Shown: positions 4,938 to 6,984 of the stretch, piece after piece
Layout of the letters: each line of letters starts with the position of its first letter
Position numbering within the stretch: position 1 is the first letter of the stretch
Notes under the pieces: model-generated
The model's input: the letters and a program-made list of their open reading frames with translations, nothing else
What the model was told of the DNA's origin: nothing
Database searches by the model: none
Translations under genes and position numbers: made by a program
Source of the DNA: a virus
Taxonomy: Duplodnaviria > Heunggongvirae > Uroviricota > Caudoviricetes
IMG/VR virus record: IMGVR_UViG_2711768060_000003
DNA length: 10,239 bases
Strand: one strand, 5' to 3'

Positions 4938-6984
4938 TTCCCGCGCCAGCCTTGCGGGGGTGGATGCCGCTAATGGTCAGTGCTGGTACGAAATCCGTGC
5001 ACAGACTGCCGGGCGGGTGGAAATTTACCTCTATGACGTGATTGGAGGATGGGGCATCACCGCGCAGCAGTTTATTGCTGACTGTAAGGATGCGGGGGTG
5101 TTTGAGGCCAGCGCTATTGATCTGCATATCCACAGCCCGGGCGGTGATGTGATGCAGGGGTTTGCCATCTTTAACACGCTGTCACGGCTGAAAGCGAAGG
5201 TGGATATCTGGGTGGATGGTGTTGCAGCCAGCATGGCCTCCATGATTGTCTGCCTGCCTGGCGCCACAGTGCATATGCCTGAAAATTCCTGGCTGATGGT
5301 GCACAAGCCGTGGGGCGGGATCGCCGGTGATTCCGATGATATGCGTGATTATGCCGACTGGCTGGATCGCAATGAGCAGCTGATGCTGTCAGCCTACATG
5401 AATAAAACCGGACTCGGGCAGGAGGAGCTGGAAGCCATGCTGAAAGCAGAAACCTGGATGAACGGTGCAGAAGCCGTGGAAAAAGGCTTCGCTGATACGC
5501 TTGAACCTGAATTACAGGCTGCGGCCTGTGTGAATCAAAATAAACTGAAGGATTACCATAATATGCCAGAACAGCTTAACGCGCTTTTTGCTCCGCGTGC
5601 AGAAACGACGAACGGACAGCAGCAGGAACCGAAAACAGCCCCGCAAAATGCACAACAGACAACTGCTCAGCAGGTGCCATCAACCGGAAATGTGGATATC
5701 AGCGCAATTGCTTCGCAAGTTCAGCAACAACTGATGGCAGCCAATGCGGAACGTGTGCAGGCTGTAACTGCAATCTTTGCCTCTTTCCCGTCTTATGCCG
5801 ACCTGAAAGCGGAGTGCCTGAACGACATGACCTGTACGGAAGCACAGGCCCGTGAAAAACTGTTGCAGGCGCTGGCAGCCGGAACGACACCAAGTGCAGG
5901 TCCGGGAGCCATTCATATTCATGCCGGGAACGGTAATCTGGTTGGCGATTCTATTCGTGCGGCTGTCATGGCGCGCGCCGGATATGCTGAAGCAGAAAAA
6001 GACAATGCCTATAACGGCTTTACACTGCGTGAACTGGCGCGTGCCTCGCTGGTTGATCGTGGCATCGGTATTTCCGGACATTCCGCGCCCATGGCGATGG
6101 TCGGGCTGGCATTTACCCACAGCAGCAGCGATTTCGGCAATATCCTGATGGATGTGGCTCATAAAGCTGCGTTGCAGGGCTGGGATGATGCCAGCGAAAA
6201 TTTTGACAAATGGACCCGCAAGGGAACGCTGACTGATTTTAAAACCGCGCATCGTGTCGGGCTGGAAACTTTCCCGACGCTACGAAAAGTATTGCCGGGG
6301 GCTGAATATAAATATGTGACCCTGAAAGATCGTGGCGAACCGATTGCACTGGCGACTTATGGTGAATTGTTCAGCATTGATCGCCAGACCATCATCAATG
6401 ATGACCTGGATATGCTGACCCGTATTCCGATGGCAATGGGGGCGGCAGCGCGTACTACCGTGGGTGATCTGGTCTGGGCCGTGTTGACCAGTAATCCGAA
6501 AATGTCGGATGGCAAACCGTTGTTCCATGCAGATCATGGCAACCTTGTGACTGCCGATTTGTCTATTGAGGGGCTGGATTCCGGGCGTAAAGCCATGCTG
6601 CTCCAGAAATCGGGTGACCGTCGCCTGAACATTCGTCCTGCTTTTATGTTGACGCCTGTTGCCATTGAGTCGCGTGCCAATCAACTGATTAAGTCTGCCA
6701 GCGTGCCCGGTGCAGATGCGAACAGTGGCATTATTAATCCGATTCAGAATTTTGCCACGGTTCTGTCAGAGGCCCGTCTTGATGACAGCAGTCCGACGGA
6801 TTATTACCTGGTGGCAGCGCAGGGGCGTGACACGATTGAAGTGGCTTACCTTGACGGTATTGATACGCCGTATCTGGAGCAGCAACAAGGCTTTACGGTT
6901 GATGGTGCAGCATTCAAGGTGCGCATTGATGCCGGAGTAGCGCCGCTTGACTGGCGTGGCATGGTCAAAGTGAAAAAACAATAA
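4894..6984 (+). CDS. Prohead protease (S49/ClpP-like) - scaffold-like linker - major capsid protein fusion (about 696 aa from ATG 4894)
   Basis: N-terminal domain carries the serine peptidase motif VDGVAASMASM (nt 5218-5244). Middle is a Gln/Ala-rich low-complexity segment. C-terminal ~360 aa is a capsid-sized domain followed by a strong terminator. AAGGAG lies 9 nt before ATG 4894; the ORF is open from 4744 and ATG 4903 or 4930 are alternatives. Overlaps the portal end. Confidence 0.85.
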   Translation: MQQMITPRLRGTMINSRASLAGVDAANGQCWYEIRAQTAGRVEIYLYDVIGGWGITAQQFIADCKDAGVFEASAIDLHIHSPGGDVMQGFAIFNTLSRLKAKVDIWVDGVAASMASMIVCLPGATVHMPENSWLMVHKPWGGIAGDSDDMRDYADWLDRNEQLMLSAYMNKTGLGQEELEAMLKAETWMNGAEAVEKGFADTLEPELQAAACVNQNKLKDYHNMPEQLNALFAPRAETTNGQQQEPKTAPQNAQQTTAQQVPSTGNVDISAIASQVQQQLMAANAERVQAVTAIFASFPSYADLKAECLNDMTCTEAQAREKLLQALAAGTTPSAGPGAIHIHAGNGNLVGDSIRAAVMARAGYAEAEKDNAYNGFTLRELARASLVDRGIGISGHSAPMAMVGLAFTHSSSDFGNILMDVAHKAALQGWDDASENFDKWTRKGTLTDFKTAHRVGLETFPTLRKVLPGAEYKYVTLKDRGEPIALATYGELFSIDRQTIINDDLDMLTRIPMAMGAAARTTVGDLVWAVLTSNPKMSDGKPLFHADHGNLVTADLSIEGLDSGRKAMLLQKSGDRRLNIRPAFMLTPVAIESRANQLIKSASVPGADANSGIINPIQNFATVLSEARLDDSSPTDYYLVAAQGRDTIEVAYLDGIDTPYLEQQQGFTVDGAAFKVRIDAGVAPLDWRGMVKVKKQ

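Follow-up and report, generated by a model that had tools for sequence, protein, structure and literature searches.

A probable internal translation start nested in the protease-scaffold-capsid fusion gene of a lambda-type phage head module

The window analyzed here, the whole 10,239-nucleotide stretch of a tailed-phage genome (Caudoviricetes; IMG/VR virus record IMGVR_UViG_2711768060_000003), contains a tripartite head gene (4894..6984) in which a ClpP-like prohead protease, a scaffold and an HK97-type major capsid protein are encoded as one open reading frame (ORF) of 696 amino acids (75.2 kDa). The gene, and every element within or bordering it described below, lies on the + strand. Comparison of this gene with its relatives indicated that the in-frame ATG at 5563..5565 is probably a functional internal start and that 4894-6984 probably comprises two nested genes in one frame. 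A sequence-only reading of the same DNA had proposed such a start, giving a scaffold-capsid protein without the protease, and the comparative evidence supported this interpretation. Furthermore, an internal Shine-Dalgarno (SD) sequence with an ATG after the protease domain is, judging by sequence comparison, a feature of the whole family, since it was found in 72 of 76 diverse representatives against much lower control counts, at canonical spacing, and also at the homologous site of Gifsy-2.

The internal start in the window sequence

The long ORF extends from a mechanically assigned GTG start at 4744 to 6984 (stop codon 6982-6984), and the annotated start corresponds to ATG 4894, as called by the Prokaryotic Genome Annotation Pipeline (PGAP) in a 96%-identical Escherichia coli prophage. 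The ATG at 5563..5565 is codon 274 when counted from GTG 4744 and corresponds to Met224 in the annotated protein. It is preceded by the SD-like hexamer GAAGGA (5547..5552; anti-SD duplex of -5.5 kcal/mol) with a gap of 10 nucleotides (ttaccataat). The earlier reading had been exact as to the ATG, its codon number in the long ORF and the hexamer at about 10 nucleotides. Its placement of the ATG directly after the protease domain also held, with the ClpP-like domain ending at residue 202-206 and Met224 lying 18-22 residues past the end of the fold. The predicted nested product (5563..6984), consisting of scaffold and major capsid protein without the protease, would be a protein of 473 amino acids (50.7 kDa) with the N-terminus MPEQLNALF.

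Taken by itself, the pattern in this single sequence is at chance level. An SD energy of -5.5 kcal/mol or lower was found before four of the 26 internal in-frame ATGs (5152, 5437, 5563 and 5827), and 12.8% of all codon positions attained this value. SD strength was considered as sufficient evidence of its own and was rejected, because the hexamer ranks only near the 10th percentile among codon positions and other methionines were preceded by sequences just as good. Since the single-sequence pattern is at chance level, its significance comes entirely from the comparison with relatives.

The surroundings of the ATG resembled those of true initiation regions. The segment from -30 to +12 had a G+C content of 31%, compared with 54% for the gene, and was the lowest-GC stretch of the gene. 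The minimum free energy of the segment from -35 to +25 was -4.5 kcal/mol against a gene mean of -14.7, which placed it among the top 1% or so of least-structured windows. The same unfolded, AT-rich context was present at the site in 28 sampled relatives, with a median percentile of 0.5%.

A competing candidate was located at 5420..5439, within the last helices of the protease, where AGGAGG (5420-5425) precedes ATG 5437 (Met182). Were this the functional internal start instead of ATG 5563, it would have the advantage of a much stronger SD (E=-10.3 kcal/mol, spacing of 11 nucleotides) and of a methionine conserved in 92% of close relatives. Nevertheless, its product would carry a fragment of the protease, its SD varied among close relatives (median -5.2), and the local fold was far more stable (-13.3 kcal/mol versus -4.5 at 5563). 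Neither a local minimum of synonymous diversity nor a family-wide cluster of starts at that offset was found for this site, and initiation at ATG 5437 in place of ATG 5563 is thus considered very unlikely.

A nested transcript in the style of herpes simplex virus (HSV) UL26.5 was also considered. No promoter-like site was found on the + strand in 4600-7500, which is weak negative evidence only. Since no such site precedes ATG 5563, a nested transcript was not suggested, and a translational start fits better.

Conservation of the start in close relatives

The close set was built from 96 loci of genomes and viral contigs, which yielded 84 non-redundant full-length relatives with 55-99% identity. 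The sequence-only reading had named loss of the ATG and SD in homologues as an outcome that would speak against it, and the opposite was found. The ATG of Met224 was kept in all 84 relatives and was lost only in two distant sequences with 31-39% identity, and the lysine codon within the SD (5548) was AAG in 75 of 75 sequences. Likewise, the lysine codon situated two codons upstream (5542) was AAA in 74 of 74. These two were the only monomorphic columns among 25 conserved lysine columns, the other 23 all mixing AAA and AAG. Where the lysine of the SD was replaced by glutamate, the variants used GAG, giving GAGGA, and the forms present among the relatives were AAGGA, AAGGAG, GAGGA and GAGGAG. 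This synonymous constraint indicates that the SD is under selection at the nucleotide level.

Synonymous diversity was measured as pairwise observed over expected synonymous differences in windows of 9 and 15 codons. The gene-wide minimum fell in both window sizes at 5515..5565, the zone of strongest synonymous-site constraint in the gene, which ends at the internal ATG (observed/expected of 0.46 with 9 codons and 0.62 with 15). The second-ranked region with 15-codon windows was the portal overlap (4903-4950), which served as a positive control for dual coding. Low synonymous diversity was also noted within the capsid domain at 6121-6156 and 6733-6759 (observed/expected of 0.36-0.65), where no obvious overlapping feature was found; codon bias or chance may account for these two windows.

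These results bear on a simpler explanation, in which only the 696-amino-acid polyprotein is made and any smaller species arises by proteolysis, the sequence K-D-Y-x-N-M-P-E-x-L being kept as a protein motif (a docking element or a cleavage site) or as a relic of an ancestral gene boundary. The SD in the window is unremarkable in strength, the segment around Met224 was modeled with fair confidence, all public annotation shows one protein, and Pro225 and an aromatic residue at 221 are conserved across the family while the methionine is not. However, a protein motif would leave both the monomorphic AAG and AAA codons and the gene-wide synonymous minimum unexplained, and the spacing from SD to ATG is canonical.

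The nucleotide conservation might instead mark a recombination joint, at which protease and scaffold-capsid modules are exchanged. A second fusion family (NF045541, PHROG 4523) shares residues from about 237 onward only, which places a module boundary nearby. Nevertheless, the N- and C-terminal halves of the protein co-varied among the 84 relatives (r=0.94, maximum discordance of 0.15), and an in-frame ATG with a canonically spaced SD would not be expected at a joint. This explanation was rejected and is held to be extremely improbable.

Some relatives departed from the common arrangement. In the Aeromonas-type sequences (L008 and L088), the ATG was kept and AAC GAC replaced AAG GAx, so that no SD was present; initiation in these may rely on an A-rich region independently of an SD, or on a different start. 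The fusion ORF was broken in Citrobacter murliniae CP163158 (L010) and in Pseudomonas phage PAN70 (L098; frameshift noted by the depositor). These two are either decaying prophages or sequencing errors, and an internal start would be the sole route to the coat protein in them.

Stand-alone scaffold-coat genes of about 470 amino acids with an MP... start (P0025, P0133, P0141 and others) were considered and discarded, as the two that were checked turned out to be gene calls at contig edges, beginning 25-36 nucleotides from the contig end (L182, 36-1442; L183, 25-1446). On contigs broken within the fusion gene, gene callers started the ORF exactly at the internal methionine (MPEQ... or MPKS...), which gives such entries the look of stand-alone genes in protein databases.

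Recurrence across the wider family

Thousands of relatives, mostly fusions of 640-750 amino acids, were obtained by searching 1.8 billion cluster representatives. Among 114 diverse full-length representatives, a methionine at the exact column of Met224 was not general (7/115) and was clade-specific. The idea of a universal methionine at this column was hence rejected, and the starts of the family proved instead to float within the linker. The surrounding protein motif [FWY]-x3-P-E-x-L (5554..5577, residues 221-228), which encloses the ATG in this clade, was family-wide, with Pro225 in 106 of 115 diverse fusions and an aromatic residue at 221 in about 100 of 115. It is modeled with fair confidence as a short helix and may serve the protease domain as a docking element at its C-terminal end. 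In most representatives, a methionine was found 20-40 residues further on, typically after residues rich in K, E and G that resemble a translated ribosome-binding site.

The DNA was then compared for 276 fusion ORFs, reduced to 76 representatives below 85% identity and anchored on the conserved proline. An in-frame ATG with an SD energy of -5 or lower was present between codons -5 and +45 in 72 of the 76, whereas control 51-codon windows gave a mean of 9.2 (maximum of 21) and the +1 frame gave 8. With the limit set at -7, the count was 37 of 76, against a control mean of 2.3 (maximum of 8) and 2 in the +1 frame. Of every 100 family ATGs, 12-27 had an SD core 4-mer ending upstream at each of the spacings from 6 to 10 nucleotides, compared with 0.2-1.0 per 100 at 1,206 control ATGs. 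Textbook examples of the family sites were caAAGGAGagcaccaccATGcc and aatAAGGAGGcttttATGcc. The position of the start floated: in the enterobacterial and Pseudomonas clades it was the residue before the conserved proline, and the other clades had it inside the linker, at +7 to +45 codons from that proline, in the zone matching the linker at residues 237-265. Additionally, a scan with the cdtI protein recovered 80 near-identical copies from E. coli prophages, which added no diversity.

The relic version of the single-polyprotein explanation fares poorly here, for a relic would decay, yet SD and ATG were retained in 72 of 76 lineages despite a changed linker and a changed start position. Together with the codon evidence above and the cargo estimate given in the Discussion, this leaves the production of a single polyprotein unlikely, although it is the most serious of the alternatives.

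Alternatively, the SD-like sequence, which lies about 15 codons beyond the protease domain, might make elongating ribosomes pause so that the protease folds before the scaffold emerges, with no initiation at all. SD-driven pausing is disputed in the literature. A pause would need no ATG, yet an in-frame ATG stood 6-10 nucleotides away in nearly every lineage, and the AT-rich, unstructured surroundings were those expected of initiation. A pause without initiation is therefore held to be highly improbable.

Head module and domain layout of the fusion gene

The window carries a lambda-type head module made up of a gpA-type large terminase (1085-3202), a lambda-family portal (3426-4937), the long ORF and a head-decoration (cement) protein gene that ends at 7386, with a PGAP-equivalent start at 7057. 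The upstream, annotated start of the fusion gene (4879..4896) is embedded in the 3' end of the portal gene and consists of AAGGAG (4879-4884), a 9-nucleotide gap and ATG 4894-4896; its median SD energy across relatives was -7.9 kcal/mol and its local fold -8.8 kcal/mol. The fusion gene thereby overlaps the portal gene over 44 nucleotides (4894-4937) in a different frame. Synonymous diversity was reduced in this overlap, as dual coding predicts, and the arrangement suggests that the full-length product is translationally coupled to the portal. Directly 3' of the fusion-gene stop and 5' of the decoration gene, a terminator-like hairpin, AACCGCCGGGCAGGGCGGTT, followed by seven T was found at 6987-7013. 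Acting as a partial terminator, it could raise capsid mRNA relative to the downstream genes.

The exact 696-amino-acid protein is present in public databases as WP_053289518.1 (E. coli), annotated as a single protein. It matched NCBIfam NF045540 (scaf_prot_MCP1, named 'ClpP-like prohead protease/major capsid protein fusion protein') with 938.1 bits against a cutoff of 475 over residues 42-694, and it also matched Pfam CLP_protease (PF00574), Phage_capsid_4 (PF25209) and PHROG 133. The gene is a member of the NF045540 family, given the full-length match and the presence of a ClpP domain and a capsid domain in one ORF between portal and decoration genes.

The domain related to ClpP head-maturation proteases occupies 5020..5499 (residues 43-202; NF045542, PF00574), and its end at residue 202-206 was indicated by the Pfam, NCBIfam and PDB ClpP matches, with the PDB ClpP chains aligning to residues 73-206. 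The predicted catalytic Ser113 (AASMA motif) and His137 (VHKP motif) were invariant in relatives, and the PDB ClpP alignment showed AASMA and H-x-PWGG. The HK97-fold major capsid domain spans 6046..6972 (residues 385-693; PF25209, Phage_capsid_4, E=1.4e-51); a weak Mu gpT-like match (PF10124) was also obtained for it, and no close solved structure was found for the coat part by sequence.

An AlphaFold model of the fusion protein was built on 88 sequences and had a mean predicted local distance difference test score (pLDDT) of 87. In this model the protease fold extended to about residue 204 (block-mean pLDDT of 85-98 for residues 31-210) and was followed in the segment 211-230 by short helices at 215-218 and 226-231 (block-mean pLDDT of 77-88). 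Next came a predicted disordered linker rich in Q, A, T and P (5602..5688, residues 237-265, pLDDT below 50) and a predicted helical scaffold segment (5698..5877) with helices 269-295, 299-310 and 316-328 (block pLDDT of 87-97). According to the AlphaFold prediction only, the helices at 269-328 precede the capsid domain as in a coat protein with an N-terminal delta domain, and the segment is predicted to play a role analogous to the HK97 delta domain or lambda Nu3. On this model, the internal start of this clade would lie at the very end of the protease-associated segment, and the short product would begin with the small PEQLNALF helix.

Discussion

If ATG 5563 is used, two products would be expected from the one gene. 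Ribosomes starting at ATG 4894 would make the 75.2-kDa protease-scaffold-capsid polyprotein, and ribosomes binding GAAGGA and ATG 5563 in their AT-rich, unstructured stretch would make the 50.7-kDa scaffold-capsid protein. The long and short forms would co-assemble through their common scaffold and coat parts, and the full-length copies would bring ClpP-like protease domains into the procapsid on some subunits only. Cleavage by the protease would afterwards release both the protease domain and the scaffold, leaving the mature coat protein, and the downstream decoration protein would later stabilize the shell. The co-assembly and cleavage steps are proposed by analogy with lambda C/Nu3, HK97 and Gifsy-2.

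With a polyprotein as the only product, there would be one protease per coat subunit, and other phages package far fewer. A rough calculation puts some 17 MDa inside the procapsid if all 415 subunits of a T=7 shell were full-length, each with about 385 cargo residues, compared with about 5 MDa for the delta domains of HK97, also roughly estimated. This difference lends support to the need for a short form, and the estimate counts against the production of the polyprotein alone. A conserved nested start would resolve the mismatch in stoichiometry, with the protease targeted by fusion to a minority of the coat subunits. Presumably the short form would predominate, as the sequence-only reading had likewise proposed. 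The ratio of short to long form is not predictable, as the upstream SD is the stronger of the two (-7.9 versus -5.5) and the internal site the less structured (-4.5 versus -8.8 kcal/mol).

Several points weigh against a functional start at ATG 5563. Initiation there was deduced from sequence. The internal SD is modest, it is matched or exceeded at three other internal ATGs of the gene, and the upstream start has a stronger SD. Ribosomes coming from the upstream start cross the internal site and may occlude it. Met224 adjoins a confidently modeled short helix and not the disordered linker used by other clades. The exact methionine is restricted to its clade, Pro225 and the aromatic residue at 221 are family-wide, so that part of the local conservation is at the protein level, and the Aeromonas-type relatives lack the SD. 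No description of an internal start in a protease-scaffold-capsid fusion was found in the full-text literature searched; the primary Gifsy-2 report (Effantin et al., 2010, Virology 402:355) lay outside this search and may report or exclude a second product.

The tripartite fusion has been described for Gifsy-2, for MD8-like Pseudomonas phages and for small actinophages (Microbacterium phages), and none of these accounts mentions an internal start. Nor is such a start publicly annotated in the fusion family. Extending the proposal from this gene to all tripartite protease-scaffold-coat genes is a bolder step, which we nevertheless favor with somewhat less assurance. All of them would be two nested genes, the scaffold-coat protein from the internal ribosome-binding site being the main capsid precursor and the full-length protein a minor carrier of the protease. 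The relative strength of the two starts would set the dose of protease, and the internal start would have moved along the linker but always been retained.

Tripartite capsid genes are common in prophages, some of which carry virulence genes (Gifsy-2). If the nested-gene proposal is true, it would cover thousands of prophages of Escherichia, Salmonella (Gifsy-2), Citrobacter, Klebsiella, Pseudomonas and Rhodobacter as well as many uncultured phages, and thousands of genomes would gain a probably abundant protein that their annotation now misses. A third architecture would then join lambda, Mu, herpesviruses and an archaeal virus in following the nested-gene logic. The question is also relevant to the production of capsids from these genes and to the interpretation of capsid-sensing defense systems.

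Comparison with known systems

The best-known parallel is lambda C/Nu3, a nested protease and scaffold (Shaw & Murialdo 1980, cited in PMC8508860). As in lambda, the in-frame internal start stands just past the protease domain, in a head module with a gpA terminase, a lambda-family portal and a decoration protein. The parallel with Nu3 drawn by the earlier reading holds in position, as the strong internal SD and ATG of lambda gene C at Met309 (TCAGGAGGGCGAATG, E=-10.8) lie 26 residues past GLADEL, and Met224 lies 21 residues past GFADTL. In lambda NC_001416, the RefSeq start of nu3 (ATG 5132) has no SD (E=-2.7), and the only strong internal SD with an ATG in gene C is that at 5342 (Met309). 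The proteases differ, being of the S49 type in lambda and of the ClpP/S14 type here; no S49 match was found in Pfam or NCBIfam, and BLASTP against lambda C gave a weak alignment (E=0.016 over 187 residues) that covers the helical scaffold segment. In lambda, furthermore, the short product consists of scaffold alone, with the coat protein E encoded separately, whereas the predicted short product here joins scaffold to coat: the ORF runs without a stop through the capsid domain to 6984 and would yield no free scaffold of the C/Nu3 type. The nested gene would hence be the lambda C/Nu3 scheme in a new form, with scaffold plus coat as the short product.

Gifsy-2, which we take to be the one experimentally studied member of the family, encodes a 696-amino-acid protein with 50% identity and the same order of protease, scaffold and coat. 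Its homologous Met221 is preceded by GAGGAG at 9 nucleotides from the ATG (gttGAGGAGtttgagcatATG, E=-8.8), a stronger SD in another clade, and Gifsy-2 offers an existing genetic system for a clean test at this site. Its decoration protein is trimeric and lambda gpD-like (PMC8538268).

In its layout, the predicted short product corresponds to HK97 gp5, with a helical N-terminal scaffold domain followed by an HK97-fold coat; in gp5 the delta domain is fused to the coat and removed by the protease (PMC8508860). The HK97 gp4 protease is encoded by a separate gene and enters the shell alone, whereas the protease would here be covalently joined to a subset of the coat subunits.

Nested in-frame pairs of protease and scaffold are also known beyond these phages. 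HSV-1 UL26/UL26.5 and gp17/gp17.5 of the Haloferax virus HFTV1 are such pairs, with the shorter form in excess. HSV uses a separate promoter. In phage Mu, the protease gene I has an in-frame internal start that gives the scaffold Z, and the coat protein T is encoded by a separate gene, unlike in the fusion described here. The short products of HSV-1 and HFTV1 likewise differ from the predicted one in being scaffold only, and their hosts and initiation signals are eukaryotic or archaeal. For the HFTV1 pair, the demonstration came from mass spectrometry together with ribosome profiling in which an initiation inhibitor was used (bioRxiv 10.64898/2026.09.13.751334).

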